Of a stretch of DNA of 64,000 nt, positions 9,401 to 63,825 are shown piece by piece (positions within the stretch are counted from its first letter, which is position 1; every line of letters starts with the position of its first letter). The notes beneath the pieces are model-generated. The model did no database searches and was not told where the DNA came from. It saw only the letters and a program-made list of their open reading frames with translations. The position numbers and the translations under genes were made by a program. Origin of the DNA: Eledone cirrhosa (taxonomy: Eukaryota). The stretch covers positions 15,252,001-15,316,000 of the forward strand of contig OZ024766.1 of NCBI GenBank assembly GCA_964016885.1. The letters run 5' to 3'.

Positions 9401-9940
9401 GAAGTTAGTGTTACAGATATATTTCTTTTAAAGTCTTATTTTAATTATTCTGTCGTTTACTCTATTTACGTCTATTATCTTATCCACCCATTTTTCTGCT
9501 AACATGATTCCTACCCAACCCAGCCCATTGTCATTTCCCAGCCCATTGTCATTTCCCAGCCAGAAAAGCTTATAGCATCGTTTTTACCCACAATGAATCT
9601 AGCAGACCCGCCCCTCCATCTGGTCTCTTGGATACAGCAAACATCAACCTCCTTACGTTCAAGCATTTCTACAACCTCGTTAGAGCGGCCTTTTAAGGTG
9701 CCTACATTCTTGGTACCAACTCTGAAGTTTTGGATTGCGTTTGGTGGGTAGGGCGCAGGGAGGGGTGAGGGGGATGGGGTTGGGGTTATGTTGGTTATCC
9801 GCGGCCGCAACAAAGAGGAGGAGGCCTTGCCCTTTCGTCCGGCAGCATGACGTGAATTTGTCGTTATCTTTGGCATTGTCTTCGAGTGTCCAGATTCTTC
9901 AGACTCTCCAGAAATTACTTAGTCCATCCATCATATCGAA
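6432..9940 (-). mobile_element. RTE-clade LINE (family B, with PHD-like finger), near full length but disrupted
   Basis: APE start (RVGTKNVGTL..CCIQETRW), internal APE deletion near 9420, RT (FVDLEKAFDRV, GVHQGSVLSP, LLYADDL), CxxC..CxxC..HxxC..CxxC insert, C-terminus with RWYGHV..GRPRKTW, 3' UTR with a ~110 bp duplication, and a (CAT)n tail at 6432-6453. Confidence 0.93.
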
Positions 9941-16023: not shown

Positions 16024-16116
16024 GTAATTCCGTCGGAAAAGTGCAGGAAAAAAGAGTGCTCTATGTAGGCAACAGAGCTTAATTATTATTATGTAATAAA
16101 CAACATAAGGCAATTA

Positions 16117-16176
16117 TTCCATTTACCAGTGGTTTCTTAAAAGCAAAAGGTTTTGCTTTCAATCCTCAGAATGAAA
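16117..16176 (-). ncRNA. Type I hammerhead ribozyme motif (family B)
   Basis: Minus strand: TTTCATT-CTGAGGA-TTGAAAGCAAAAccTTTTGCTTTTAA-GAAA-CCACTGG-TA-AATGGAA; same sequence as the copy at 19585. Confidence 0.8.
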
Positions 16177-16331
16177 AAATCCTGGTTTGTTTATTGAATT
16201 TGGATTTTAAAAAACAAAAATGCAAACTATATGAAAGTGAGGCTGGAGAAGGGAGAAGGAAAGGAAAAATAAAATAAAACTACACATGCAAACACACACA
16301 CAAAAACACAAAAGCATACATACACACACAC

Positions 16332-16396
<65 letters not shown>

Positions 16397-16639
16397 CACA
16401 TATATATAAAAAAAAACATTGACACTCCTATGATAAATCAACCGCCTTGAAATCCTTCCCTGCTCTTTACTTCTGCTACGGTTTTTATTTTGCTGATTCT
16501 ACGTTCTGTACTCTTGTATATTTACTTATTTTTTTCTCCCTTACCTCCCCTTATATTTTACCTTTTCTTATGCCCCCCCCCCCATATATTCTTTTTGCCT
16601 TGCCCTTCACATACCTATGTGTATGTGTATGTATATTTG

Positions 16640-16712
<73 letters not shown>

Positions 16713-16789
16713 GTGTGTGTATGTGTATGTGTGTATATATATGTATATATTTGTGTGTGTGTATGTATATGTGGATAAACCAGGGTTTT

Positions 16790-16849
16790 TTTCATTCTGA
16801 AGATTGAAGGAAAAATTTTTTGCTTTTAAGAAACCACTGGTGAATGGAA
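16790..16849 (+). ncRNA. Hammerhead motif (family B), probably inactive variant
   Basis: TTTCATT-CTGAAGA-(weakened stem II)-GAAA-CCACTGG-TG-AATGGAA. The cleavage triplet is GUG, which violates the NUH rule. Confidence 0.65.
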
Positions 16850-17050
16850 TAATTGCCTTATGTTGCTTTATTACTTTACTACTATATATACGTATATGTA
16901 AGGTTCATATGAATTATCTAAGACTGAGTCTTACACATACACACATGTATGTGTGTGTGTATGTGTATGCATGTGTATATATATGTATGTATATGTATGT
17001 ATGTATATATATATATATATATATGTGTATATATATATATGTATATATAT

Positions 17051-18629
17051 GCCTTCGACAGAGTCCTCCGCTCCATTATCTGGTGGGCTCTTAGAAAACT
17101 AGGCGTTGACGAATGGCTTGTGAGGGCTATACAAGCCATGTATAAAGAAACAGTCAGCAAGGTTAGAATTAACAACGAATATAGTGAAGAGTTTAGCGTA
17201 AAAGTTGGCGTCCATCAGGGCTCTGTTCTCAGCCCACTACTATTTATTATTGCCCTTCAGGCTATAACAGAGGAGTTCAAGACAGGCTGCCCATGGGAAC
17301 TCCTATACGCAGACGACCTGACACTCATAGCGGAATCAATGGCCGAGCTAGAGAAGAAATTCCAAACATGGAAGCACGGCCTAGAGTCAAAAAGACTTAA
17401 AATTAACCTGGCTAAGACCAAAGTTCTAGTTTGTAGGAAAGAAAACAAGGCGGTGGTCCCTTCTGGGAAATGGTCGTGCTCGGTGTGTAGGAAAGGCGTA
17501 GGTAGAAACTCCATTTTATGTCCTAAATGCAAAGTATGGGTGCATAAAAGATGTAGTGGGATCACAGGTAAGCTAACGAAGAACACAGATTTTACATGTG
17601 GCCGGTGCTCTGGTGCAATAAGTAGCAGCAAGTGCCCACAAAATACTAGCTCTTTCAATTGCGCAGAGGGTTCTATAGAAATAGTGGACAGCTTCCGTTA
17701 CCTGGGCGATAAAATCAGCAGTGGGGGAGGGTGCTCTGAAAGTACTGTAGCTAGAGTCAGAACTGGTTGGAAAAAGTTCAGAGAGCTTATACCACTATTA
17801 GCTGCTAAAGGGTTCTCCCTAAAAATGAAAGGCAGGTTGTACGATGCCTGCATACGAACAGCAATGTTGCATGGCAGTGAGACCTGGGCATTGTGTGCAG
17901 AGGATATACGCAGACTAGAGAGGAACGAAGCTTGCATGCTCCGCTGGATGTGTAACAGTAATATACGTGAACGGCAAAGCATAAACGAACTAAGGAAAAA
18001 ATTAGAGATAAGAGGGATCAGATGTTGTTTACTCGAGAGAAGGCTACGTTGGTATGGACACGTGATGCGCATGAAAGTCGATAGCTGTATAACAAAGTGC
18101 AGGGCAATAAAGATAGACGGTAGCCACGGAATAGGCAGACCTAGAAAAACCTGGGACGAGCTGATAAACTCCGACCTCACACACTTACACCTCTCCAAGA
18201 CAATGTCACTGGACCGAGACCTTTGGCGGTACTCAGTAACAGAGAAGACCCGCCTAGCCAGTAGGCATCTCTAACAAAATACACCCCGTCCCGCCACCAC
18301 CCCCACCCATCCACACCACCCCGTCCTATGTAAAGTTATGTTGGTGCCGCGCCATCCAGGCCGAAACAAATGAGATCGTGTAGGTGTTACGACAAAAAAA
18401 CACACAGTCCACGCTGTAATGTGGCCGTGTAGGCAACACGGTAAAAACCTCCCAGACCCACACTGTAAATGTGGTTGGTGTTAGGAAGGGCATCCAACTG
18501 TAGAAAACCTGCCAGACAGTCCTATGCGAGCAAGACAATCACTCTTGCCTCAAGTGGGACTACCCCCGTCCAAACCCATGCAAGCGTGGAACACGGACGT
18601 TAAATGTTGATGATGATGATGATGATGAT
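17051..18629 (+). mobile_element. 5'-truncated RTE LINE family B inserted in a (TA)n tract
   Basis: Open frame from AFDRV through the RT, PHD-like finger and C-terminus, then 3' UTR and (GAT)n tail; closely matches the copy at 35801-37960. Confidence 0.95.
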
Positions 18630-19307: not shown

Positions 19308-19406
19308 ATATGTGTGTGTGTATGTGTATGTATGCGTGTATGTATGTGTATATGTGTATGTATGTGCATGTGTATATTTGTGTATGTATATATATATGTA
19401 TATATG

Positions 19407-19437
<31 letters not shown>

Positions 19438-19584
19438 ATGTATGCTTTTGTGTTTTTTTGTGTGTGTGTTTGCATGTGTAGTTTTATTTTATTTTTCCTT
19501 TCCTTCTTCCTTCTCCAGCCTCACTTTCATATAGATTGCATTTTTGTTTTTTAAAATCCAAATTCAATAAACAAACCAGGATTT

Positions 19585-19644
19585 TTTCATTCTGAGGATT
19601 GAAAGCAAAACCTTTTGCTTTTAAGAAACCACTGGTAAATGGAA
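19585..19644 (+). ncRNA. Type I hammerhead ribozyme motif (family B)
   Basis: Stem I TTTCATT/AATGGAA, core CTGAGGA, 11-12 bp stem II, GAAA, near-palindromic stem III ACCACTGGT, GUA triplet (predicted cleavage after 19637). Confidence 0.8.
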
Positions 19645-20164
19645 TAATTGCCTTATCTTGTTTATTACATAATAATATTTTACATGGTAGACATTATTTG
19701 AATTTTGAAAATGTGAGACCAGAGAAATTGCTTCATGTGACACTGTAAGAAAACATTAAAAAATGAAATGCATATCTTCTTCTTTATCATTAAGTATGTC
19801 AGCAGCAGCAGCACCACACACACACACATATATATATACAGAGAGAGAGAGAGAGAAGAGAGAGAGTAGTTAATAATAAATACAAAGACCAAAATCTAGA
19901 GAGGGCTCAATAAGATAAGAGTTTTATGTATATATATATATATACATATATATGTATCATCATCATCATCATCATCATTTTACGTCCACTTTTCCCTGCT
20001 TGCGAGGGTGGGACGGAAACTGATTCTGGTTTGATTTCTACAGCTGGATGCCCTTCCTACCACCAACCTTATTTACAGTGAGTGCTGGGTGCTTTTTTGC
20101 TGTGGCACCTCCACGACCACTTTGCAGTGGAATGATAGAGGCCCAAGTCCCTATCATCTCATTT

Positions 20165-35803: not shown

Positions 35804-37960
35804 TCATCATCATCATCATCAACGTTTAACGTCCGTGTTCCACGCTTGCATGGGTTTGGACGGGGGTAGTCCCACTTGAGGCAAGAGTGATTGTCTTGCT
35901 CGCATAGGACTGTCTGGCAGGTTTTCTACAGTTGGATGCCCTTCCTAACACCAACCACATTTACAGTGTGGGTCTGGGAGGTTTTTACCGTGTTGCCTAC
36001 ACGGCCACATTACAGCGTGGACTGTGTGTTTTTTTGTCGTGACACCTACACGATCTCATTTGTTTCGGCCTGGATGGCGCGGCACCAACATAACTTTACA
36101 TAGAATGGGGTGGTGTGGATGGGGTGGGGGTGGTGGTGGTGGGACGGGGTGTATTATGTTAGAGATGCCTACTGGCTGGAGTAGGTTTTACTATATATTT
36201 AGGTAAGGCGGGTCTTCTCTGTTACTGAGTACCGCCAAAGGTCTCGGTCCAGTGACATTGTCTTGGAGAGGTGTAAGTGTGTGATGTCGGAGTTTATCAG
36301 CTCGTCCCAGGTTTTTCTAGGTCTGCCTATTCCGTGACTACCATCTATCTTTATTGCCCTGCACTTTGTTATACAGCTATCGACTTTCATGCGCATCACG
36401 TGTCCATACCAACGTAGCCTTCTCTCGAGTAAACAACATCTGATCCCTCTTATCTCTAATTTTTTCCTTAGTTCGTTTATGCTTTGCCGTTCACGTATAT
36501 TACTGTTACACATCCAGCGGAGCATGCAAGCTTCGTTCCTCTCTAGTCTGCGTATATCCTCTGCACACAATGCCCAGGTCTCACTGCCATGCAACATTGC
36601 TGTTCGTATGCAGGCATCGTACAACCTGCCTTTCATTTTTAGGGAGAACCCTTTAGCAGCTAATAGTGGTATAAGCTCTCTGAACTTTTTCCAACCAGTT
36701 CTGACTCTAGCTACAGTACTTTCAGAGCACCCTCCCCCACTGCTGATTTTATCGCCCAGGTAACGGAAGCTGTCCACTATTTCTATAGAACCCTCTGCGC
36801 AATTGAAAGAGCTAGTATTTTGTGGGCACTTGCTGCTACTTATTGCACCAGAACACCGGCCACATGTAAAATCTATGTTCTTAGTTAGCTTACCTGTGAT
36901 CCCACTACATCTTTTATGCACCCATACTTTGCATTTAGGACATAAAATGGAGTTTCTACCTACGCCTTTCCTACACACCGAGCACGACCATTTCCCAGAA
37001 GGGACTGCCGCCTTGTTTTCTTTCCTACAAACTAGAACTTTGGTCTTAGCCAGGTTAATTTTAAGTCCTTTTGACTCTAGGCCGTGCTTCCATGTTTGGA
37101 ATTTCTTCTCTAGCTCAGCCATTGATTCCGCTATGAGTGTCAGGTCGTCTGCGTATAGGAGTTCCCATGGGCAGCCTGTCTTGAACTCCTCTGTTATAGC
37201 CTGAAGGGCAATAATAAATAGTAGGGGGCTGAGAACAGAGCCCTGATGGACGCCAACTTTTACGCTAAACTCTTCACTATATTCGTTGTTAATTCTAACC
37301 TTGCTGACTGTTTCTTTATACATGGCTTGTATAGCCCTCACAAGCCATTCGTCAACGCCTAGTTTTCTAAGAGCCCACCAGATAATGGAGCGGGGGACTC
37401 TGTCGAAGGCTTTCTCCAAGTCGACAAAAGCTAAGTAGAGCGGTTTACCTTTAGCTAGGTACTTCTCCTGTAGTTGTCGTACTATGAAAAGAGCGTCTGT
37501 AGTACCTTTGCCTGACACAAACCCGAACTGCATTTCATCTAGGTCAATTCTCTCTCTGATTAGTTGCGCTATTACTTTTTCCGTGACCTTCATGACCTGG
37601 TCGATTAATTTAATGCCTCTATAGTTACTCCTATCTAGGGCGTCTCCTTTATCCTTATAACAGTTAACGATGATGCTGCTATGCCAGTCCTTCGGAACAA
37701 CCCCATTCTGTACGACTTGGTTAACTATGCAGGTGACCATGGTGTGTCCCACCGTGCCAGATGCCTTCAGCATCTCAGCAACTATTTCCGAAGGCCCAGC
37801 CGCCTTACCCGTCTTCATATCCTTGATTGCCTTACTTATTATACTCCCCTCGACTAACACTGCTGGTCCCTCTATTGGGTCGATATGGGGGAGACTGTCT
37901 TTCTCCCATTTATTCTCCTCATTTAGTAGCCTTTCATAGTGACACTTCCAAGCTACCTTC
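35801..37960 (-). mobile_element. 5'-truncated RTE LINE family B with uninterrupted RT to C-terminus frame
   Basis: The 587-aa ORF at 36199-37962 has no stop; (CAT)n tail; (TA)n on both flanks. Confidence 0.95.
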
Positions 37961-38099
37961 ATATATATATATATTTCTCACTCTTAGTGCGGCTGTTACT
38001 TAAATATAAGTATGTATACGTACATACATATATGTATACAGGCGTACAGTAGTATGTATATATATATACATACATGCACACATATATATATGTACGTAT

Positions 38100-41000
38100 G
38101 GCACTCAATGACAATGTCACAGATAAAGACAAATTCACCTCCTGCTGCAAGACAAGAATACAAGGACCCCTCTTTATTTCAGACACAGATGACCAACAAA
38201 ATCCCGTCTCCCACACCCCTCCCTGTCCCTCCAACCCATCCATCCCACCCTCCCAACTTCAGAGTTGGTACCATGAACGTAGGCACATTGAAAGGTCGCT
38301 CAAATGAGGTTGTAGAGATGCTTGAACGTAAAGAAGTTGATGTTTGTTGTATTCAAGAGGCTAGGTGAGGAGGGGGATCTGCCAGATTCATCGTGGGTAA
38401 AAAACGATGCTATAAACTTTTCTGGGTGGGAAATGACAACAGACAGGGTAGTGTAGGAATTATGTTAGCTGAAAAATGGGTAGATAAGGTAATGACGTAA
38501 ATATAGTGAATGACAGAATAATTGAATTAAGACTAGTTCTAAATAGAATTACTGTGACAATAATATCTCCTTATGCACCCCAATCTGGTCTACCTGATGT
38601 TATAAAGGACAGGTTCTATTAGATGCTAATGCACACTACCTCCCAAATAACCGAAAGTGACTACTTAATTATTGCTAGCGATCTAAACAGTCACGTTGGA
38701 CAACATAGTGATGGCTATGATGGAATCCATGGAGGCTATGGGATTGGAAATAGAAATGAAGAGGGTTTCAGAATCCTAGAATTCAGTGATGCAAATAGCC
38801 TAACTATATGTAACACAAACTTAAAAAAACGTGAATACCATTTAATCACCTATAGATCAGGGGAACACGCCAGCCAGATAGATTATATCCTTACTAGAAG
38901 ACGGGACAAAATGTCTGTTGTAAACTCTAAATCCCTCCCCCGTGAAGAATGCACCTCGCAACATCGCTTAGTAGTTAGTGACCTCATAGTCAGGAATAGA
39001 CGTACTCGACGACAGAAGAGGCCTACCTTGAGGAGAAGAATATGGAAGTTGAAGGACCCCATAGCCAGTGACAAATTTAAAAGCTTATTATTTGTTGCCT
39101 TTGACAATAAGGAAGAGCAATTAGAGACGTGCAATAGAGAGGAACAGTGGCAATTCTTGAAAGTGAACCTGCTGAAAGCAACGGATGAAATCTGTGGCTG
39201 GAGTAGACCTATTGGCAGGAGGAGAGTAACTTGGTGGTGGAACAGTGAGGTGGAAGAGACAATCAAGGCCAAAAAGCAGGCTTGGAAAGAATGGCAGGAC
39301 GGGGGAAGTAGAGAGCACTATCAAGTGGCCAGGAGAGAAGCTAGGAGACAAGTGTACCTTGCAAAAAGGGTAGCAGAGGATAGAAAGTTCAAGCATGTTC
39401 TGCAACGTGAGGACCAAAAACGTGAGGTGTTCAGGATTGCTAGACAATGTGTCAAGGAAAACCGTGATATTGTCGGGGAGAAGTGTGTCCGTAATGATAA
39501 TGGTGTACTTGCGCTCACTGATACTGATAAGCCTGGAAGTGGCACTACGAGAGACTATTAAATGAGAAGAATAAATGGGAAAAAGATAGTCTGCCCCAAA
39601 TCGATCCAATGGTGCAAGGTAAAGGTAGTATAAGTAAGGCAATCAAAGATATGAAGACAGGCAAGGCAGCTGGGCCTTCGGAGGTAGTTGCTAAGATGTT
39701 GAAGGCATCTGGTATGGCGGGACACACTATGGTCACCCGTATAGTTAACCAAGTAATACAGAATGGGGTCATACCGAAAGACTGGCGTAGCAGCATCATC
39801 ATTAACTGCTACAAGGGTAAAGGGGATGCTCTAGATAGGGGAAACTATAGAGGCATTAAGTTAGTTGACCAGGTCATGAAGGTCACAGAAAGAGTAATAG
39901 CGCAACTAATCAGAGAGCGAATTGATCTAGATGAAATGCAGTTTGGGTTTGTGTCAGGTAAAAGTACCACAGACGCTCTTTTCCTTGTACGACAACTACA
40001 AGAGAAGTACCTAGCTAAAAGAAAACCCCTCTACTTAGCTTTTGTAGACCTGGAGGAAGCTTTTGACAGAGTCCCCCGCTCCATTATCTGGTGGGCTCTT
40101 AGAAAACTAGATGTAGATGAATGGCTGGTGAGAGCTATACAAGCTATGTATAATGAAACAGTCAGTAAGGTTAGAATTAACAATGAATATTGTGAAGAAT
40201 TTAGTGTAAAAGTTGGCGTTCATCAAGGCTCTGTCCTTAGCCCCCTCTTATTTATTATTGCCCTTCAGGCTATAACAGAGGAGTTCAAGACCCGCTGCCC
40301 ATGGGAACTCCTATACGCATATGATCTAACGCTCATAGTTGAATCAATGGCTGAACTAGAGAAGAAATTCGAAACATGGAAGCATGGCCTAGAATCAAAA
40401 GGCCATAAAGTTAACTTGTCTAAGACTAAAGTTCTAGTTTGTAGAAAGGAAAATAGGGCACAGGTGCCCTCAAGGAAATGGCCATGCTCAGTGTGTAGGA
40501 AAGGAGTAGGCAGAAATTCCATTTTATGTCCCAAATGCAAAGTATGGGTGCATAAAAGATGTAGTGGGATCACAGGTAAACTATCTAAGAACGTAGACTT
40601 TATATGTGGCCAATGCTCAGGTGCAATAAGTAGCAAGTGTCCAAAGGATACTAGCTCCTTCCATTGCCCAGATGGTTCTATAGAAATAGCAGACACTTTC
40701 CGTTACCTGAGTGACGAAATCAACAGTGGTGGAGGGTGTTCTGAAAGTACAGTAGCCAGAGTCAGAACAGGATGGAAAAAGTTCAGAGCGCTTATACTGC
40801 TGTTGGCCACAAAAGGTTTCTCTCTAAAAATGAAAGGCAGATTGTATGATGCCTGTATACAAACAGCAATGCTACATGGCAGTGAGGCATGGGCATTACC
40901 TGCAGAGGACCTGTGTAGGCTGGAAAGGAACGAAGCATGCATGCTCCGTTGGATGTGTAATAGTAATATACGTGAACGACAAAGCATAAATGAACTAAGT

Positions 41001-41631
41001 TAGAAATTAGGAATAAGAGGGATCAGATGCTGTTTACTTGAGAGAAGACTACATTGGTATGGCCATGTGATGCGCATGAAAGACGACAGTTGTATAAAAA
41101 AGTGCAGGGCGATCAAAATTGATGGTAGTTACGGAGTAGGTAGACCCAGAAAAACCTGGGATGATCTGATAAATTCTGACCTCACACACTTACATCTCTC
41201 TAAGACAATGTCTCTGGGCCGAGATCTTTGGTGCTATGCAGTAATACAGAAGACCCGCCTTGCCTATGCACAAAGCGAAACCTACAGTCAGTAGGCACCT
41301 CTTAACCAAATATACACCCCAATCTACTACCCCTACCCTATCCTCCCACTCCCACCAACAGCATGAGAAAATGAAATCGAGTTTGTGTAGGTGTCACGGA
41401 AAAAAAACACACACACAGTCCACGCTGTAATGTGGTCGTGTAGGTAACACGGTAAAAAGTTCCCAGTTCCACACTGTAAATGTGGTTGGTGTTAGGAAGG
41501 GCATCCAGCCGTAGAAAAAGTTAGTTCTATATGAGTGAGACACGGTCACCCGACCAGCCTTGCCTCAACTCCCGTCTAACCCATGCTAGCGTGGGAAATG
41601 GACGTTAAACGAAGATGATGATGATGATGAT
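38100..41631 (+). mobile_element. Near full-length, more diverged RTE LINE family B copy (APE + RT, stops and frameshifts)
   Basis: ORF pieces 38012-38368, 38623-39561, 39609-41003 and 41067-41294; YADD mutated to YAYD; (GAT)n tail at ~41614-41631. Confidence 0.93.
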
Positions 41632-42165: not shown

Positions 42166-45100
42166 TGTTTACGCTCAAGAGACTAACCCCTTGGGAGAGG
42201 CTAAACACAGGTCAGAGGTGTTTACGCCTGACAGAAAAGGTCAGAGAATATATCCATCTTCCTGAGTTGTTTACGCTTGGCAAACTAATCCCTTGGGAGA
42301 CTCTAACCAAAGTTCAGAGGATATATCTATCCTTCTAACTTCAACTCTTATAAATACAGGGGTTGTTTACGCCCCGACAGAAAAGAAGTGATATACAGAC
42401 AACACAAGTGGCCTTTACAAGCTCTCGTCACGAAATACACCAGTCCGTCACTAATTTCCTCTCCTGCCTGGCTGATCGATACAACCACATATTCCGTTAC
42501 AACTGGTGACCCCGTAAAACAGACACACAACTTCTGATCATCCACTACAAACGATGTCTCTAGCACACGACGATTCATCTACGGCAGAAATGGCAGTGAG
42601 GGCGGCATTTACATTAAGAATTCCACCATTCTGGGTGCACGATCTAACACTGTGGTTCGCGCACATCCAAGCGCAGTTCGCATAATAACACACGGCCCAC
42701 CTGTCGCTGCACGACCTAGAAGGCTACCACCAGACCGGCTGAAGTCCGTCAAACAAGAATTTTAGCACATGCTGGATCTCGGCATCATACGTCCGTCCAG
42801 CAGCAACTGGTCCTCACCCATACACTGTGTACCCAAGAAGTCGTCGAACGACTGGCGAATCTGTGGCGACTACCGTGCACTGAACAACTGCACCGTTCCT
42901 AACTCTTATCCAGTGCCTCATCTACAGGACTTCTCTAGCTCGCTGCACGGGGCTCGCATATTTTCGAAGATCGATCTTGTGCGAGCTTACAATCAGATAC
43001 CCGTTGAGCCCGCAGATATTCCAAAGACCGCCGTCACAACACCCTTTGGAATGTTCGAATTTCTGCGTATGCCTTTCGGTTTGCGAAATGCAGCGCAGAC
43101 ATTCCAGCGATTCATCGATACAGTCACCAGGGGTCTACCTTTTGTATACGCATACATTGACGACTTAAAGGTGGCCAGCAGCTCCGATGAAGCACATGAG
43201 AAACACCTGGATCTCCTATTCACACGTTTGCGTGAATATGGAATTGTTATCAACCCCAGCAAATGTGAGTTCGGAGTTGCGTCCCTTCATTTTCTGGGAC
43301 ACATCATTGACAAAGATGGTATTCGCCCACTTAAGGAGAAATTCAAATCCATCATTGATTTTCCACAACCTATATCTCTCCGCAAACTGCGAGAATTTCT
43401 TGGCCTGGTAAACTTCTACAGAAGATGTATACCCCACTGTGCAGAGACAGCCCAACCACTCACAGATTTGCTGCGGCAGCATACAACCAAAAACGCAAAC
43501 ATCAAGCTCAGCGAAAAAGAATATACCGCTTTCGCTGAGTTGAAGAAAATGTTGTCCGAGGCTACAATGCTGAGTTACCCCAAACCTGACGCCCCAATGT
43601 GTTTATTGACTGATGCATCCGATTTCGGAGTTGGAGGTGTGCTTCAACAACTCTCTGGCGATATTTGGCGACCTGTATCTTTTTTCTCTAAGCAATTAAA
43701 ACCCGCCGAAACTAAGTATAGCACATTTAGTCGTGAATTATTGGCAGCATACCTTGCTGTCAAGCATTTTCGACACATGCTAAAAGGTCGTGTGTTCTCT
43801 ATATACACCGACCACAAACCACTAGTGTACGCGTTCAATGCCAAGCCTGACCGACACTCACCCAGGGAGGTCCGACATCTGGACTTCATTTCTCAGTACA
43901 CTACTGATATTCGGTACATTAAGGGTGCCACCAACTCAGCAGCTTATGCCCTATCGCGCATGGAGCTTAACGCAATCCACACCACTGCCACTATCGACCA
44001 CCAGAAGATTGCAGCGGATCAACAGAATGACGAGGAACTGCTGCAACTCCGGAAATCATCCTTGAAATTGAAGGAATGCCTGCTGCCCTCTTCTTCGGGT
44101 TATATTTGGTGTGACATCTCCACAGGCCGCGAGCGCCCATACGTGCCCCGGAAACATCGACGCGACGTTTTCTCGACACTGCATGCTCTGGTACATCCTG
44201 GCGTCCGCGCCACGCAGAAACTGATGGTTGCCCGCTTTGTGTGGCCCAACATCAACAAGGACACCCGCGAATGGGCTAGGAACTGCATCGCGTGCCAGAA
44301 GGCGAAAATTCACCGGCACATCAAAGCCCCGATCGCTTCTTTCGCAACACCTGATGCACGGTTCCAACATGTGCATATAGACATAGTTGGACCTTTGCCT
44401 CCTTCTCAAAACTACACTCATCTTCTCACCTGTGTCGACCGATTTTCTCGCTGGCCAGAAGCTTTTCCCCTGACGGATATTACTGCGGAAACTGTCGCCA
44501 AAACGTTAGTGTTTCACTGGGTTTCACGTTTCGGCACACCCGCGACCATCACTACGGATAGAGGACGTCAGTTCGATTCGAATCTATTTACCGAGCTGAC
44601 TCGTCTCCTCGGGTGCAAACACATCCGTACAACAGCGTATCACCCTGCCGCTAACGGCATGGTAGAACGCTTACACCGCCAGCTAAAATCATCTATCAAG
44701 GCTTACGAAGACTCCACTAACTGGTTCGAATACCTCCCACTCATTCTTCTTGGTATTCGTTCCACTGTTAAAGAGGGAGTCGGACATTCTCCGGCTGAAA
44801 TGGTGTATGGCACCGTACTCACTCTACCCGGACAAATGATCACTCCTGTTTCGCCACAAGAACTTCCAGACCCTACAAAATATGTGCACCGTTTACGGTC
44901 ATCAATGTCGCATCTGTCTCCTTCAGCCCCTAAACAGCACGTTACTTCACACATACCAAAAGACATCGATACATGGACGCATGTTTTCGTTAGAAATGAC
45001 GGTATTCCATCGCAACTTCGTCCGCCGTATTCCGTCCGGGCCCTACAAGGTGATACAGAAATGCCCTAAGTATTTCGTCCTCGACTTGAACGGGAAGCGA

Positions 45101-52472: not shown

Positions 52473-53417
52473 AAACCGATTGTTATATTCTTTGATTTGT
52501 AAATATATATAAATGATTTGATATCTAAATTCTATATTATTCTATTTGTTTGAAATGTTGTAATACATGCTTATGTTATTCTCGATACTCAGGTTTTTAA
52601 CCTAATATTTAATTAAAAGTATAATTATGCATGAGTATATACACACAAATATATATTTAGTTGGAATAAAATATAATGAACTTTCTAAAGTTGTAACTTG
52701 GTATCTGACATTCTGCTGTCCTTAAATATTCTGTCCAGAACTTTGACCTAATTGTCTTCCTCTATTGTAACACCCCTCCTCATCCTCTAACTGCTTTCCA
52801 TTGAATTTCATCTTTTATCTCCTTTTCAGCCGATGGATTTTGTTGATTTAGAAACCAGCCAATGAATACCATCGGTCAATATTCCTTTATATTTTGATAT
52901 GTTTTTTATTCTTGTAATAAAATTAGTTTTCATTCAACACTGACGATAGAGAGCGGATGGAGGTATGTTGTATTTTCTTTGTATAATTTGTAAAATATAA
53001 AATATATATATATATATCTTAATGAAAATACACATGCCAATATCTGATCCCTTGAAACGATCGTCTGTTAAAGTGTAAATCAATATTAATAGGAAGAACA
53101 TGTTCTTTGTTTAATTTTTCATTGTTTTTCAATGTCTTATTTTGACTCTGTCTTCCAATTGTTTTACATTATTAATTAACTACATGTATTTTTTATGATT
53201 TTTCCACATTTGGATTACATTGAGTTCTCTATACGGATTCGACACTACCGTTTACTCCGGTAGATTAATCTGTTATATATATATATATATTTCCTGGACT
53301 TTTGCTCTATGTTTTGTTTTTCGTCGATTATTTGACGTGTTTTACATTCTTCGGTGTTGAATATCAAATCAAGCGAATTGCATTATTCCAACTGTGTCAA
53401 TATAGTGCTCATTAAGA

Positions 53418-56135
53418 ATGTTGCCTAAAAAAAATTACAAGACTGGAGCAACAAAGAGGAAAGAAGCTAGACAAGCTGCCAGGGAAGAATCTGCAAAGAA
53501 ATGTCATCTAATCACAAGTTTTCTGAAAAGTCAACAGTCTTCGTCAACAAGTAGTGACGCATCCCAAACCAATGTAACTGCCGGAATTTCCGGCGAGTCG
53601 GTCTGGTCAGATGAACTGGAGAAACAGAAAAGCACTGGAGAGTCGCGAGAACCTGACGTCGAAGATGCCTCAGGTCCATCGACTATCTCAACAACCGTCG
53701 TAGTCACTGAAGATATAGTTCCAAATGGGGATCCAAACTCAATAGAGGGAAAAATGGCTGTATCGGAATCTGAAAATGAAAATGATTCAGAGGAAACTAC
53801 ATCGGCAAAACAAATCCCAGAGCATGGGCCAGTAGAGTGCATGTTGAATTTACAAGAGAAGTATCCAAGCGACCCGAAACATTTCGAAGACAGACCATTG
53901 ACGACACCTCTAATTCGTGCCCTCATGACTTTTGGTCCTTGTCAGCCAGGATTGAAAGATCATTTTGCTGATTTCCCTCTCGACTCGAACCACAGAAAAT
54001 TCAACATCAGTTGGTACAAGAGAAAGTGTGCTGGAATCCATGAAGTTGACCGACACTGGTTAGTATACTCTCCTGAATCCAACAGACTATATTGCTTTTG
54101 TTGTTGGCTGTTTGCTGATAAAAATGCCGAATCTTACTCGAAGACTTGGGGTAATCCAGAGTGTGGGATGGCAAACTTCAAAAAGGGAATCGAAAAAATT
54201 GCCAATCATGAGAAAAGTACCATTCACATCAATGCACAAAAGCAATACTTCATGACAAAATATCGTTTGGACGCAAATAAAACGGTGATCGATAACCTCA
54301 TCCATGAAGAGAAGCGAATTGAACGAAATCGCCAGATATTGGGGCGATTGCTTGATTGTACGTTATTTCTCACAAAACAAGGCTTGGCCTTCAGAGGTCA
54401 CAGGGAATATGCTGGACTTGGCGCCAAATCAGAAAATGAAGGAAACTTTATTGAATTGTTGAAATTGATAGCCAAGTGTGATACGATCTTGGAAAGCCAT
54501 TTCTTCTCACCTGGGCACACTAAAAGACAGCCTATGTACTTAAGTCCAAAATTACAAAACGAATTCATAGAATGCCTGGCGAACGAATGTACTCAACAAA
54601 TAATCACGGAAGTGAAAGCGGCAAAATACTATTCAGTCATTGTCGATTCCACAATAGACATTTCGCATCAGGATCAATGCTCTGTGTCACTCCGATATGT
54701 ATCGAAAAGTGGCCACGCACAGGAGCGTTTCCTGTCATTTTGTGAACTAAAATCAGCAGCCGCTGAATCATTTTTCAATACGCTTGTGAAAGTTCTTTTC
54801 CAGGATCTTTCTTTGGATGCTCAATATATTAGAGGACAAGCTTACGACGGAGCGTCAAATATGTCCGGCCATATTTCTGGGCTTCAGGCTAGAGTTAAAG
54901 AGGGATGCTCTTCGAAAGCTGTTTACGTCCATTGTTGTGCTCATAACCTGAACCTGGTGTTAATCGATGCTAGCCAATCGTCAATGGATGGTAAATTATT
55001 TTTTGGTACATTGGAGAGCCTGTATGTTTTCTTAACATCAAGCTTGCCAAGGCTGAAAATCCTCGAAGAAGAACAAGAAAAACTATTGATTTCAACGGTA
55101 TTAACATTAAAACGACTCTCAGATACCCGCTGGTTTAGTCACATTCAGGCTGTAGAGGCTACCATTAACAACTTACCGGCAGTAATGAGTGCACTAGAGA
55201 GGATAGTAAGTGGGGATGTTCGCAACACTGCTCCGAAAGTATTAGCTGAGGCCAGAGGTTTGCTACTAAATGTGAGCAAGTTTGAATTCATTTTCATGTT
55301 GAAGTTTTTTCAGAATTTACTTAAAAAGCTGCATTCTGTTTCACAATATTTGCAGAAGGAGGCTATCGACTTATATTCCGCGGACGTCATGATTAAAAAT
55401 GTAGTAAAAGAAATTGAAGAAATCCGCTCAAATGAATATTTTGACCGAACATTATCAGACACTAAAAATCTCGCCGAGCAATGTCAAGTTGAACCAGAGT
55501 TTACAACAGAAAAACGGAAAAGAAAAAAGAAGCGTTTTCATGACGAAAATGCCAGTGACGAACCTCATGAGACGATGAGTCAGCATTTTAAACGGGACGT
55601 TTATTTCACTATCCTAGATAGAATCATTAGTAGCTTTAACGAACGTTTTGCCGACTTGCACGGTCTAGTGAAGGATTTTTCGTGCTTGATACCGGCGCAC
55701 TTCGACGACGACGACACATGCAATAAAGAGAGAATCGATAATCTTGCGAAATTCTACGAGGGTGACATCGAAAATGACACTATCTTCGATGAATATTTAT
55801 CATTCAAAGATTTTTACAAGGAAGTGTGTTTAGATAAATCCATATCGAGTTCTGAGATCGTTCCGTTTATGATTTCTAAGGACTTAGATAGAGCCTATCT
55901 GAACGTGTTTGCCTTATACAAAATGTTCATAACTATTCCAGTTAGCTCGGCGCAGGCTGAGCGAACCTTCAGCAGGCTCAAACTGATAAAGAATTATTTG
56001 CATAGTACCATGAGTGAAGAGCGGTTGAATGCTCTGGCAATGATGTACATAGAGCGAGAACTGGCTGAAAAAATTGACTTCAGCATCGTGATTGAAAAAT
56101 TTTCTAAAGTAAAACATCGCAAATTAGAACTGTAG
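53418..56135 (+). CDS. hAT transposase, 905 aa, intact (TTF-type zinc finger, DUF4371-like region, DDE core, hAT dimerisation domain)
   Basis: WLVYS..YCFCCWLF, LAFRGHRE, GNFIELL, IVDSTID, QAYDGASNMSG, HCCAHNLNL, DTRW, SSAQAERTFSRLKLIK..RLNALA. Confidence 0.95.
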   Translation: MLPKKNYKTGATKRKEARQAAREESAKKCHLITSFLKSQQSSSTSSDASQTNVTAGISGESVWSDELEKQKSTGESREPDVEDASGPSTISTTVVVTEDIVPNGDPNSIEGKMAVSESENENDSEETTSAKQIPEHGPVECMLNLQEKYPSDPKHFEDRPLTTPLIRALMTFGPCQPGLKDHFADFPLDSNHRKFNISWYKRKCAGIHEVDRHWLVYSPESNRLYCFCCWLFADKNAESYSKTWGNPECGMANFKKGIEKIANHEKSTIHINAQKQYFMTKYRLDANKTVIDNLIHEEKRIERNRQILGRLLDCTLFLTKQGLAFRGHREYAGLGAKSENEGNFIELLKLIAKCDTILESHFFSPGHTKRQPMYLSPKLQNEFIECLANECTQQIITEVKAAKYYSVIVDSTIDISHQDQCSVSLRYVSKSGHAQERFLSFCELKSAAAESFFNTLVKVLFQDLSLDAQYIRGQAYDGASNMSGHISGLQARVKEGCSSKAVYVHCCAHNLNLVLIDASQSSMDGKLFFGTLESLYVFLTSSLPRLKILEEEQEKLLISTVLTLKRLSDTRWFSHIQAVEATINNLPAVMSALERIVSGDVRNTAPKVLAEARGLLLNVSKFEFIFMLKFFQNLLKKLHSVSQYLQKEAIDLYSADVMIKNVVKEIEEIRSNEYFDRTLSDTKNLAEQCQVEPEFTTEKRKRKKKRFHDENASDEPHETMSQHFKRDVYFTILDRIISSFNERFADLHGLVKDFSCLIPAHFDDDDTCNKERIDNLAKFYEGDIENDTIFDEYLSFKDFYKEVCLDKSISSSEIVPFMISKDLDRAYLNVFALYKMFITIPVSSAQAERTFSRLKLIKNYLHSTMSEERLNALAMMYIERELAEKIDFSIVIEKFSKVKHRKLEL

Positions 56136-57563: not shown

Positions 57564-58550
57564 ATATTAACTGAAATCACAGTTGAGGGAAATATAGAAG
57601 AATATTTTATAAGAAATATAATATAAAAAATATTACAAGAAAAACATCTGTATATTCTGTTGAAGAAGAAATCATTATGCCAAATAAATTGACAAAGAAG
57701 ATTAAATGTGAAACACAATCTAAAGTGTTTAGTATTGCTGGTGAGATGACAAAGGTTAGAGAACAGAAGCCATATCACTGTGATATCTGTGGTATATCAT
57801 TCTCTCAAAGAGGTACCTTAACTACTCACAAACGTATACATACAGGTGATAAGCCATATCACTGTGATATCTGTGGTAAATCATTCTCTGGGAAAAGTAG
57901 CCTAACTACTCACAAATGTATACATGCAGAAGAGAAATCATAATGCATTGATATCAGTGATAAATCATTCTCTCAAATTTGTGAATTAATGAGAATACAA
58001 ATACATATCATTGTAACATCTTAGGGAAAGCATTCTCTTTGAATGTTACATTAACTACACACACACATATACATACAGCTGGGAAGCCATATCACTTTGA
58101 TATATTTGGTACATCATTCTCTAAATGTTGTGGCTTCACTAGACACTAACATCTACAGGAGAGGAACCATATCACTGTGATGTCTGTGATAAATCCTTCT
58201 GTAAATGTGGTTTCACTAGACACCAACATATACATACAGGAGAGGAACGATATCACTGTGATGTCTGTGATAAATCCTTCTCTAAATGTTGTGGTTTCAC
58301 TAGACACCAACATATACAGGAGATGAACCATATCACTGATGTCTGTGATAAATCCTTCTCTAAATGTTGTGGTTTCACTAGACACTAACATATACATACA
58401 GAAGAGGAACCATATCACTGATGTCTGTGATAAATCCTTCTCTAAATGTTGTGGTTTAATTAGACACTAACATATACAGGAGAGGAACTATATCACTGTG
58501 ATGTCTGTGGTACATCTTTCTCTTATAAAGATTACTTAATGCAACACAAT
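57564..58550 (+). pseudogene. C2H2 zinc-finger array exon; two intact fingers, then degenerate fingers
   Basis: Acceptor ttcag|atatt at ~57563; [41 protein letters not shown]; stop at 57941-57943, followed by frameshifted finger repeats up to ~58550. Confidence 0.85.
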
Positions 58551-58639
58551 TAGATAAAAACCATGTCACTCACCTAAAATAGTGCCATCAATGTTGTTAA
58601 TATTTTGAATAAACCTGTTTTACTAAGAAATTCTCCTTT

Positions 58640-59760: not shown

Positions 59761-61319
59761 GTCCACAGGTTGACACAACATTTAGTGGTTTGAAGTATGC
59801 TCCAATTTTATTCCCCTTCACATCTTAACACTCCACCCCCTTACCAGCTAAGTACACCACCCTGACACACCTCTCCAATCCCCACCCTACATACACACAA
59901 CCCCACCCCCACTTTCACATCTGATACACCTCTCTTGACCAACCCATGTATACAAGTATGGAAAGCTTAACATGCTCTCCTCCAATGCTGCTGAAATGGC
60001 TAAACCCTCAGGCAACCCTGTAAGGTGGTCATGCAGGTGTCATGACAAAAGAGCACCAAGTCCTCTCTGTTAGGTAACATGACAAAAGAACACCTAACCC
60101 TCCCTGCAAGGTAGTCATGCTGATGACATGACAAATAAGCACCCAGTCCACCCTGTGAGGTAGACATGACAGAAGGCCCCTAGCCCACTCTGTAAAGTAG
60201 TCATGCTAGTGCTAGTGACAAGACTGAAGGGACCCGAAGCACCCTTCAAAGTGATCAAATTGGTGACATGACTTGACACCATTTTTTAGTTTACTTCTAA
60301 AATATCTCATTTTTATTTTACTTCTAAACTATCTCATATATTTAAAAATTACTTATTTTAAAAAATTATTATTTATTTCTTAAAAAAATTACTTTTTAAA
60401 GATTATTTAAAATTTTTTAATATTTTTTAAATATTTTTAAACATTTTAAATAGTTTAAGTACTTTTTAAGTATTTTATTTTGTTAAAAGGGTTTTTTGAG
60501 TATCTTCTGAGATTAAAAAAAATTTTTTTTTTTATTTTTCCAGAAATTTTTTCCAGAACTTTTAATATTTTAATATTTTTAATATTTTTTAATTATTTAA
60601 TATTAGAGTTATAACCAATAACTAATTCTGGCTATATATATCTTTCAACATTTATATCTTCGTCAAAATGGTCTCATACTAACTAATAAATAAACAAAGC
60701 TGGGTTTTTCAGTATCTTCCTAATTTAAAACATTAAAAACATATAAATAATCTTATTAACTCAGTTAATTTAATTACTTACACTAAATATAAACCAGTAT
60801 CCCTCATAACTTATTAAAACAATTATCTATAACATGATATAGCCATTTATCCACTCATATATCTATTCTTCTATCTATTGATTCTCCTATTTTCTACTTT
60901 ATATCTATTTATTTTCAATTTATTATTCAATGTCTTTATATATATTTATTTTTTCTATATATCTATTTTTCTATATACTTATAATAGTAAATATTATATT
61001 GTATTATATTAGAATTCTAACAATAATTAGTAAATATACGTAACATTAATATAAACGTAATACTTATTTACGTTACATGAGTTCATCCTCTATAAATGTC
61101 TTTCTTCTCTCTATCTCTCTATCTATCTCATAACAGTAATTTTTTTCTCTCTCTTTCTTCTCTTTCTTCCCTATCTTTCCCCAGCGTAATTTAAATAAAC
61201 GGTTGTTTTTTTCAATTTTTCATACATTCATTTGCATATTCACACATAACTTTGAATTACCCCTAATAAGTTTCCCCTATCCAGCGAATTTCCGACCGTT
61301 ATTTATAAAACAAATTTTG

Positions 61320-61384
61320 TATTTTATCTGATGAAAGAGCACCAAGATTGACTTGGTCGCCCTTGAAATATATATAATAAAATA
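61320..61384 (+). ncRNA. Type I hammerhead ribozyme motif (family C)
   Basis: TATTTTAT-CTGATGA-AAGaGCACCAAGattgaCTTGGTcGCcCTT-GAAA-TATATATA-ATAAAATA: 8-bp stem I, long stem II, palindromic TA stem III, AUA triplet. Confidence 0.78.
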
Positions 61385-62541
61385 AATATGCAAAAGTCTA
61401 TTTAAATTGTTGGGATACAACAAGCAAATATGTTTATAACTGATATAAAGCACTCAACAAGTATTTGGAATAAACATACGATATTAACAATCCTTTTGTA
61501 TTTTATGTACTCAATTATATTATGTACTATATTGATTTATACTTCTCCCTATATGTGAGTATATATGTATATGTGTATATTGACATACATGTACATGCGT
61601 TCTATGCATTTTTATGAATATATTGACATACATGTACATGCGTTCTATGCATTTTTATGAATATATGTCTGTCTGTATGTATGCATGCGTGACGCGTATC
61701 TACCAATTGGCTGAGGATGCACACACATGTATATATATGTATATGTAAGAATTGTGTGTGTACATGTACATGTATACCCATACAATTTGATTGCAGATAG
61801 ACATTACTAACAGCCATAAATGCATACCAGCTAATCTTATATATTTATATATATATATTAAAAACATTTTTTATAAAAAATATTTTATTTAATGACACAA
61901 AGGATGGATAACATTAAATTAAAAATTCATTTATGCTTTGTATGTATATATTATATACGTGGTTAGATATGGTGTGTATTTTGTGAGTGTGTGTGTATAT
62001 ATATATATTTATGTGTATTTTTGCGTGTGTGTACGTGTTATATGATATGTAGTTCTCTAGCAATATATAGATTTCTTAATGTTTAGATTCCAAGTTTTAA
62101 TATATTGATCTCAATTTTTAAACTAAATATCTAATCATAGTTAAACAATGATTAATTTCTCATATTATGTATGTATATTCCATTCATGATTATTAATATT
62201 TCTAATTTTATTTATTCATTTCATCTCAATTGTTAAGTTAACTTAATATGACATGACTTAATGTGTTCATTCTTTCCCCCTCTCTCTATCTCTCTATTTT
62301 TCTCTCTGTCTGGTGTTTTGATATATCTCTCTCGTTTTTCTCTCGTTTTTCTTTTTTCTTGTTTTCTTTCTTTCTTTCTCCCTTTTCTCTCTCTCCGTCC
62401 TTTTCCTTATCTGTAACACTACGACTTATTTTAAAAATACTAATATAAGTAAACAACTCCACTATCCCTGAGTCTTCCAAAAGTAACGGTTGCATTTTGT
62501 AAGGGTATGTCAATATTTATTTATAAAACTGTTATATATTG

Positions 62542-62606
62542 TATTTTGTCTGATGAAAGCATACCATAATTTAACATGGTATCCTTGAAATATGTATAAT
62601 AAAATA
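62542..62606 (+). ncRNA. Type I hammerhead ribozyme motif (family C, second copy)
   Basis: TATTTTGT-CTGATGA-AAGcATACCATaatttaacATGGTATcCTT-GAAA-TATGTATA-ATAAAATA. Confidence 0.78.
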
Positions 62607-63293
62607 GATATGGTTTTATAAATATAGTTTCCATTTGTTAATATCGTATAATAAAATAAATATAGTTTTACGTCCGTTCTTCCATGCTAGCATGGGTTAG
62701 ACGGGTTGTCCTGTTGTGGGCAGTGTCTGGTCGGCTGACCATGCCTTGCTCATACAGGAACTGATTTTGGCTTTTCTATAGCCGGATGCCCTTCCTAACA
62801 CCAACCTCATTTACAGTGAGTGTTGCGTGCTTTTTTCCGTGGCGCCTATACGTCCACTTTACAGTGTGGGCTGGGTGCTTTTTTTATGTGGCACCTCCAC
62901 GACCACTTTGCAGTGGGAGGGTGTGGGGGCATATTGTCTATATGCTTCAGCTTGAACCCATGGGAGGTCGGGTACTCTGTATTACTGCGTGACGCCAGAG
63001 GTCACGGTCGTGTGTCATCGCCTTTGAGAGGTGTGTGTTTATATATATATATATACAAATAAATTATCGAGAATCGGAATCTCGGCCCATGAAATAATGA
63101 AACACAATCAAAGTGCTCAATAGTTTGGATAAACCAGAGCTATAACTAACGTTTAAATACCAACACACTGAGATAATGCTTAAAATCATTCGCACAGCCG
63201 AAAAAAACGACCAAGAAAATTCGGGTCAGACAAATAATAAATATATATATATATATTTTTTCTTTTAACATATATGTGTATATAAAATATATA

Positions 63294-63368
63294 CAGGGTC
63301 TCCCCAAAAATGTATACACACTTCAACTACAGTCTATGTAAGTGTGTATACATTTTGGGGGGACACTG
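63294..63368. mobile_element. Tc1/mariner-type miniature element (75 bp)
   Basis: TA|CAGGGTCTCCCCAAAAATGTATACACACTT … AAGTGTGTATACATTTTGGGGGACACTG|TA. Confidence 0.8.
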
Positions 63369-63825
63369 TAATATACATATCATTAAACGTATCTCCTACA
63401 TGTGTATAAATAAATATACATGTATTTTATTAACAATTTTCTGTAGAATCTGTTAAACATGGAAGAAAATGTGGAGACTAAATAAAATTAACGTGTTGGT
63501 CACATTAACTTAATAATATAACTATATATTAATGAAATATGTCGAAATAAAAGTTGTAATTGTGACAAAAATATTGATTCGGTAGTTTATTATGACCAAG
63601 ACTACTCATTATCCCACTACATCTTTTGTATACTATATATATACTGTATATATACTGTTTATATATATATATACACACACACATATAATTGCGTATTCAC
63701 ACATTATCTTAGTAATGAAATAATAATTTTAGTAAATTGTTCAAAAGGCAATTCCTTCCTCAATCATTACATAGATGTGTGTATGTAATAATTATTTTGT
63801 ATTGTGTGTCTATTTAGGAATATGT

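Follow-up and report, generated by a model that had tools for sequence, protein, structure and literature searches.

Genomic Setting of the Locus

The window, i.e., the whole 64-kb stretch of DNA that was analyzed, consists of animal DNA rich in repeats, for which Pfam detected LINE-type reverse transcriptase (RT) frames with a PHD-like finger, a Gypsy pol, an hAT transposase, and a Helitron piece. The copies of this LINE, whose RT frame carries the PHD-like finger, are located at 7586–9427, 16928–18274, 36199–37977, and 38623–41003, and are 82–96% alike. The Gypsy-type pol frame of 767 aa (RT, RNase H, and integrase) occupies 42766–45069, and the hAT-type transposase frame (DUF4371 and hAT dimerisation) runs uninterrupted over 909 aa at 53406–56135. 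At 52940–52990, CUGACGA is followed by a 15-nt identity (52956–52970) to the 3′ end of two Octopus Naiad consensi and then by a TA run, which is possibly a Naiad-related end. On the plus strand, a C2H2 zinc-finger array (57587–58560) begins with two intact fingers, followed by a stop and then by frameshifted repeats of 78–84 nt, and is likely a pseudogene or a truncated gene. The window is probably octopus-like, as judged from the features of the zinc-finger repeat, the LINE content, and the 15-nt Naiad identity.

The region of interest starts with an AT-rich, G-poor stretch (60270–61095; 5% G and 47% T on the plus strand), which contains degenerate short tandem repeats and abundant stops in all frames. 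This stretch gave neither a Pfam match in the frames tested nor a coding signal, and translation in the mitochondrial code yielded no internal frame longer than 67 aa. The base composition of its minus strand resembles that of Naiad 3′ UTRs by eye, and five 12-mers showed no exact match in Octopus Naiad 3′ ends. The region is bounded downstream by a SINE-like repeat (62665–63034), which has many copies in the window and lies outside the element, directly 3′ of a 17-nt repeat described below. The SINE is followed by a short MITE-like inverted-repeat hairpin (63287–63380). Six of ten sequencing runs, derived from two studies, contained the stretch or a part of it as judged from sampled words, and none of the six is listed as RNA. 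The share of these words was 0.45–0.63 in the runs of organism A and 0.39 in one run of organism B. Run X4, consisting of 88 million letters, held 0.45 and so nearly matched data sets 16 times larger, which could reflect a multi-copy or transcribed part.

Two Direct Type I Hammerhead Motifs

The first-pass annotation reported two direct hammerheads 1222 nt apart, and a descriptor scan located both of them on the plus strand at 61320–61384 and 62542–62606, with predicted cleavage after 61376 and 62598, respectively. This family is denoted family C below. In copy 1, stem I is formed by 61320–61327 and 61377–61384, followed by the core (61328–61334), stem II (61335–61364), GAAA (61365–61368), and a palindrome (61368–61375). 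The corresponding parts of copy 2 are stem I at 62542–62549/62599–62606, the core at 62550–62556, stem II at 62557–62586, GAAA at 62587–62590, and the palindrome at 62590–62597. In both copies, a stem I of 8 bp leads into CUGAUGA, followed by a 30-nt stem II that AAG/CUU closes, then by GAAA, a loop of 6 nt, and UA at the cleavage site; stem III is one A–U pair closing the palindrome. They possess all the features by which PMC3088659 recognizes a type I hammerhead, namely the CUGANGA core, GAAA, UH, and base pairs next to the core in all three stems. The upper stem II helices are as described in the annotation, and the A–U to G–U change in stem I was confirmed by comparing 61326 with 62548.

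Stem I of copy 2 can be extended (62518–62624, plus strand) by pairing of 62518–62532 with 62610–62624, of which the 5′ arm is also kept in copy 1 at 61300–61311. The energy of this extended stem is −9.5 kcal/mol in copy 1 versus −14.7 kcal/mol in copy 2. A CT-rich tract had been noted ahead of each copy, and such tracts do exist on the plus strand at 61101–61184 and 62266–62415 (82% and 87% pyrimidine), but they do not adjoin the motifs and end approximately 135–145 nt before the cores. The first tract terminates in a strong splice-acceptor-like CAG located 144 nt before core 1, while the second ends approximately 135 nt before core 2 with no strong acceptor AG after it. The motif AACGGTTG is common to both copies (61198–61205 and 62485–62492, plus strand), and AACGGTT has two plus-strand occurrences in the window, each of them ahead of one copy; these likenesses were noticed post hoc and are weak. 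The 1222-nt stretch between the predicted cuts (61377–62598, plus strand) is AT-rich and ORF-less as annotated, with 26.6% GC, approximately 27% simple sequence, no coding remnant, and no overlapping stop-to-stop frame longer than 80 aa. It includes a perfect 43-bp tandem duplication in a region rich in TA/TG microsatellites (61576–61666). Within the same stretch, a donor-like GTAAGA comes after CCAAT-like and TGACG words (61698–61750), perhaps what is left of an internal promoter and the start of an intron.

A descriptor requiring at least 6 bp for stem I, at least 3 bp for stem II, and at most 12 nt for loop III detected two motifs in 60300–62700 versus none in 3000 dinucleotide shuffles, and four motifs in the whole window, for which 100 blockwise shuffles averaged 0.02. 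Both hammerhead motifs are real and not chance occurrences. The Rfam hammerhead models gave no match to family C even at E-values up to 10. At the gathering level, Rfam returned a single tRNA-like match for the whole window, and none of its 26 sub-threshold matches in 60500–63500 came from a hammerhead family. A covariance model constructed from both copies identified no third copy in the window, where its one other match below E = 1 came from the hairpin of copy 2 itself, read on the reverse strand.

A scan of viral contigs for the motif gave zero matches. Two metagenome matches (L001 and L002, one repeat-rich locus) were rejected as chance, showing no stem I (1 bp) and E = 1.8 with the covariance model, and six near-identical coding-dense loci obtained from an ORF scan for Penelope-like elements (PLEs) were also rejected, as no hammerhead stem I was seen by eye. 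Classical minimal hammerheads with a bulged base are present in L001 (2611 on the plus strand, and 4190 on the minus with 4338 on the plus strand) and L002 (2437, plus strand); they include an inverted pair, lie in repeat-rich host-like DNA in metagenome contigs, and are unrelated to family C. Neither family C nor a retrozyme from a cephalopod was described in the literature covered, though such a description may exist in subscription papers, Repbase, or further supplements.

Divergence of the Two Copies and Selection on Structure

The copies are alike over a single stretch, 61299–61390 versus 62517–62612 on the plus strand, with 79% over 97 columns. Outside it, the local alignment score was equalled by 110 of 500 local shuffles for the flanks between tract and core, by 422 of 500 for the flanks upstream of the tracts, and by 481 of 500 for the downstream flanks. 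The CT tracts aligned better, at a score that 2 of 500 local shuffles reached, although simple sequence underlies this alignment. Apart from the CT tracts, flank alignment did not exceed the shuffle level in any of the three tests, and the flanks are largely unrelated, an outcome that the first-pass annotation had set against its own proposal. A resumption of the copy 1 tail near 61426, which gives a plausible fold, was discarded because 481 of 500 shuffles aligned as well.

Within the shared stretch, the differing columns are concentrated in upper stem II (11 of 25), compared with 2 of 41 in the core, stem I, stem II base, and loop III (Fisher p = 1.9 × 10−4). Both single changes outside upper stem II keep a G–U pair, one in stem I and the other in the loop III palindrome when it is paired across the copies. 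When 9 or 11 bases were randomly substituted in copy 1, the stem II stability of the partner was attained in 446 and 318 of 10,000 trials, respectively, and the same substitutions in copy 2 attained it in 24 and 21 of 10,000. A looser threshold of stability was reached in 6–23% of such trials. The hammerhead fold has been selected at some time since the copies diverged, a statement that refers to two sequences only and is not dated to this locus. The annotation had regarded the retained pairing as its strongest internal evidence for selection on structure; the fold is indeed retained despite the change of stem II, but this is not evidence that the pair cooperates now. Selection in two diverged copies is expected of any one retroelement lineage, so a present joint function of the pair is not shown by it. 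Extreme within-genome variability with compensatory changes is described as typical of PLE hammerheads (PMC4209133).

Dimer-Type Design and Folding Energies

Since stem III consists of one pair plus a palindrome, both motifs are of the dimer type. At 37 °C, an energy penalty of 5.0 and 6.0 kcal/mol is attached to forcing the two monomers into the active fold. For the segment 61290–62635 at 37 °C, the double hammerhead was evaluated at −272.4 kcal/mol, two single hammerheads at −263.4 kcal/mol, and the free minimum at −276.3 kcal/mol; the values at 20 °C were −418.6, −408.6, and −424.4, respectively. In the modelled double hammerhead, an 8-bp stem III including one U–G is swapped, and each 5′ arm of stem I pairs with the 3′ arm of the other copy, for which the model leaves out tertiary contacts and folding order. 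This fold speaks for feasibility only, since any two related copies could swap arms. If the plus strand is transcribed, the pair could fold as a double hammerhead with weak cutting, for which the 1222-nt piece would be a by-product and not an evolved circle. Dimer dependence and low activity are described for PLE motifs (PMC4209133), one PLE hammerhead required its protein for cleavage (PMC11167929), and eight of nine predicted Xenopus dimers did not cleave (10.64898/2026.07.22.740005).

A 17-nt Repeat and a Possible Nested Insertion

A direct repeat of 17 nt is found on the plus strand at 61373–61389, where it spans cleavage site 1, and at 62647–62663 (17/17 to the left copy). The right copy also matches copy 2's own segment 62595–62611 at 16 of 17 positions. 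An exact 17-mer was reached in 1 of 1000 shuffles, and a 19-nt version with two mismatches in 0 of 20,000. The left copy ends where the similarity between the two hammerhead copies stops (61390), and the repeat may be a target-site duplication generated when the second copy was inserted just behind the first cleavage site. The candidate insertion would then extend over 61390–62646 (approximately 1257 bp, plus strand), which places hammerhead 2 at 48 nt from its end, the ends being estimated from two copies. Target-primed reverse transcription would then have placed the second copy within the AT-rich stem I/loop III of copy 1, at a point 13 nt behind the cleavage site of the latter, with 17 bp duplicated. 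Insertion of PLEs into or beside earlier copies is reported (PMC6765202), and AT-rich DNA of its own pseudo-LTR is a substrate for a PLE endonuclease (PMC11167929). Nesting would also account for the fact that, of the extended stem I, copy 1 has preserved the 5′ arm alone.

Several observations argue against nesting. The 17-nt repeat is AT-rich, other copies of the adjoining SINE follow TA-rich runs, and the repeat could be a local duplication of copy 2's tail. A duplication of this kind, 52 nt in length, would predict identity with copy 2 at the nucleotide preceding the right copy, which is observed. The SINE starts directly behind the right repeat, so that a displaced tail of copy 1 is not visible, and its continuation at 62664 was rejected because the letters there are the usual SINE start. 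Within the PLE reading described next, we regard a nested insertion as about equally probable as its alternative, in which both copies would have landed side by side in an AT-rich patch.

Probable Relation to the 3′ Ends of Penelope-Like Elements

Both motifs are likely the ribozyme-bearing 3′ ends (parts of pseudo-LTRs) of two related, long-diverged PLE copies or non-autonomous derivatives, which are 5′-truncated and have the same orientation. Family C resembles a PLE end in its mode of action and most likely originated from one, and is not claimed as a Hydra-clade element. In the parent elements, the motifs would have worked as dimer-type (double) hammerheads on tandem transcripts, on which the changes in stems II and I would have been selected. 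The layout of family C comprises a pyrimidine tract, a hammerhead with an 8-nt palindrome, a short tail, and an AT-rich setting, an anatomy that fits PLE 3′ ends and is closest to the published Hydra-clade motifs. The latter have a U-rich 5′ side, a palindromic stem III of 8–10 nt, and often A at the cut (PMC8557442, File S2); they are located near the 3′ end of elements whose targets are (TA)n (PMC8557442). At the protein level, the clade is defined by the motifs RWK, DKT, and CxCX5C and by having no CCHH (PMC8557442). Seven short TA runs are present in 60000–63200, one of which is loop III of copy 1. In the consensus 3′ UTRs of Hydra-1_Crog and Hydra-2_Amil, pyrimidine/U-rich tracts are visible by eye 5′ of the hammerhead (PMC8557442). 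The annotation had raised the A–U closing of stem II as a caveat, which has a published parallel, because an A–U pair closes the 7-bp stem II of Hydra-1_oBim from Octopus bimaculoides (PMC8557442, File S2). Penelope elements belong to the abundant families of coleoid genomes (PMC8967140).

A strict acceptor-like pattern occurs at four sites on both strands of the 64 kb, three of which (61184, 19518, and 16243 on the minus strand) lie 74–144 nt upstream of hammerheads. Those at 19518 and 16243 represent copies of one family, and the remaining site is a poly-C run. In Drosophila Penelope, an intron described in PMC2377424 ends at the hammerhead (PMC4209133). The two sites of one family belong to a second hammerhead family, located at 16081–16419 (minus strand), 16777–16874 (plus strand), and 19344–19680 (plus strand) with motifs at 16169 (minus strand), 16797, and 19592. 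It has an 11–12-bp stem II closed by U–A, a 3-bp palindromic stem III, and a strong acceptor-like CAG 74 nt upstream. Its layout is as in family C. It further has a microsatellite at the 5′ end, tails of approximately 43 nt, and two inverted copies separated by 630 bp, the latter being an arrangement described for PLEs (PMC4209133, PMC8557442). Its stem III is almost identical to that of Hydra-1_oBim. The copy at 16797 has G at the cleavage position, from which it is probably dead. Rfam likewise missed this family at the gathering threshold. One of the LINE copies is located between the second-family hammerheads.

No remnant of a PLE RT or GIY-YIG was identified in the window, as Pfam gave zero PLE-type matches in 20 + 26 + 150 + 44 frames and the RT matches fall in LINE-type and Gypsy-type frames; a search for PLE protein motifs also gave no convincing match. 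Since RT and GIY-YIG are expected to be missing in short truncated ends, their absence lowers the case for membership and not the resemblance. Against the PLE reading, the 1.15 kb upstream of copy 2 is non-coding, although the stop codon of the Hydra consensi lies approximately 100–250 nt before the hammerhead (PMC8557442). Family C also has neither the bulged base after A9 nor the G10.1–C11.1 pair of the metazoan min-HHR consensus, and instead has A–U directly after A9. Three family C motifs gave zero matches in the Naiad, Chlamys, and Hydra consensi printed in the supplement of PMC8557442, where line breaks can hide matches. Octopus Naiad 3′ ends were examined as a source and rejected, showing no match to the family C motifs.

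Alternative Explanations

The two motifs might instead be dispersed SINE-like elements of approximately 100–300 nt, which bear hammerheads, have no direct PLE parent, and were inserted independently 1.2 kb apart with host DNA as the spacer. The shortness of the shared block, the absence of a coding remnant, and the host-like microsatellites of the spacer are consistent with this, and such elements exist in Schistosoma (PMC6765202). However, the dimer-type palindrome, the upstream pyrimidine tract, and the short tail match PLE ends, the presence of two copies 1.2 kb apart and none in the other 62 kb suggests targeting, and the spacer is bracketed by the 17-nt repeat, with which we consider this origin unlikely.

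It is doubtful that an old duplication or nested pair was kept by the host as a double hammerhead maintained in place to trim a host transcript of the plus strand, for example, an extended 3′ portion of the zinc-finger gene whose C2H2 remnant lies 2.8 kb upstream. Conservation of the ribozyme positions between unalignable flanks would agree with such retention, as would the 5′ arm of the extended stem I, which is identical over 13 nt and can pair across the copies; the zinc-finger frame is on the same strand, and the runs of the second organism hold 0.39 of the sampled words. Selection in the parent elements gives the same pattern, though, and swapping of stems is possible for any two related copies. 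The zinc-finger array is broken after two fingers, and copy 1's own extended stem is the weaker one.

A retrozyme at its birth is a similarly slim prospect. Here, a non-autonomous PLE derivative would have homed into the ribozyme of a diverged older relative, and the resulting heterologous double hammerhead would release and circularise a 1.2-kb RNA. Its components would be the swapped 8-bp stem III, the cross-paired stems I, the A–U-closed variant with a long stem II, and a cephalopod-like host, a combination to which we assign the same low probability.

The first-pass proposal of a retrozyme monomer, in which the 1222 nt between the cuts would be excised, circularised, and retrotransposed, is very improbable. 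Two type I hammerheads on the same strand, an ORF-less AT-rich spacer, a double-hammerhead fold within 4 kcal/mol of the free minimum, and a circular fold with z = −2.9 (30 shuffles) are in its favor. Against it, 58% of that circular fold is paired versus 60% in the shuffles, and its energy per base is the weakest of seven windows (−0.199 versus −0.206 to −0.355 for six controls). With eight shuffles each, the circle gave z = −5.2 versus −3.7 to −19.3 for the controls, which is weaker than five of the six. The two ends are alike over the 97-nt block only, beyond which the flanks are at the shuffle level. TRF detected no such tandem period, for which its period limit is 500, so that the self-similarity result carries this point. 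Animal non-LTR retrozymes are described as tandem units of 150–450 bp that yield small, highly self-paired circles (PMC7229834), and vertebrate units as 51–972 bp (10.64898/2026.07.22.740005); 1222 nt exceeds these published unit lengths. Finally, chance motifs in AT-rich DNA, to which the AU-rich stems and the failure of the Rfam hammerhead models might point, are refuted by the absence of any motif from the 3000 shuffles and opposed by the homology of the two copies, in which the cores are conserved and the pairing is retained, leaving a negligible probability.

Significance and Comparison with Known Systems

PLE-end hammerheads number in the thousands in animal genomes. The most likely reading makes family C one more family of this known kind, which is of small value by itself. 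The variant found here (30-nt bulged stem II, A–U closing, and no extra base after A9) was missed by Rfam and by short-spacer descriptors, a hint that counts of hammerheads in such genomes are too low. If both nesting and cleavage were true, the locus would give a direct view of a PLE end yielding a retrozyme-like unit, so far argued from phylogeny, and would tell if a working dimer can be assembled from hammerheads of different subfamilies.

Among the known systems, the plant LTR retrozymes (PMC7229834; 10.64898/2026.07.22.740005) similarly have two hammerheads flanking a non-coding region, but these are type III motifs in long terminal repeats accompanied by a PBS, a PPT, and 4-bp duplications, whereas family C is type I and has no long repeats. 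The metazoan non-LTR retrozymes (PMC7229834; Li et al. 2026, 10.64898/2026.07.22.740005) share with family C the direct type I hammerheads, the lack of an ORF, and the low GC content. In the same sources, a derivation of non-LTR retrozymes from PLE ends is proposed and target-site duplications longer than 4 bp are described. Unlike them, family C has no tandem conserved unit, and its unit is longer than any reported there and not highly self-paired. Abundant monomer RNA in linear and circular form is a further hallmark of non-LTR retrozymes.

The min-HHR of metazoan PLE pseudo-LTRs described by Cervera and de la Pena (2014, PMC4209133) is similar to family C in its dimer-type design, long helix II, and high variability between copies. 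These are also mostly single motifs from truncated PLEs, and an intron acceptor lies nearby in Drosophila Penelope. Family C differs from the min-HHR in having no bulged base between 9 and 10.1, no G10.1–C11.1, and a longer helix I. Compared with the Hydra-clade PLE hammerheads (PMC8557442), family C is without an ORF and without the extra base after A9, its stem II is longer and bulged (30 nt), its stem I consists of 8 bp plus an extension, its palindrome is purely A/U, and it has no sequence identity with the published consensi compared. It nevertheless shares with Hydra-1_oBim, Penelope-17_HM, and Penelope-15_HM (PMC8557442) the type I architecture, the U-rich 5′ side, and the palindromic stem III, and further resembles the Hydra-clade hammerheads of the same source in the frequent cut after A, the short tail, and the TA-rich setting. 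AACGGTT 5′ of the motif, present in both copies here, is also found in Hydra-1_oBim and Penelope-15_HM, a likeness noticed post hoc, and the A–U closing of stem II is shared with Hydra-1_oBim (PMC8557442).
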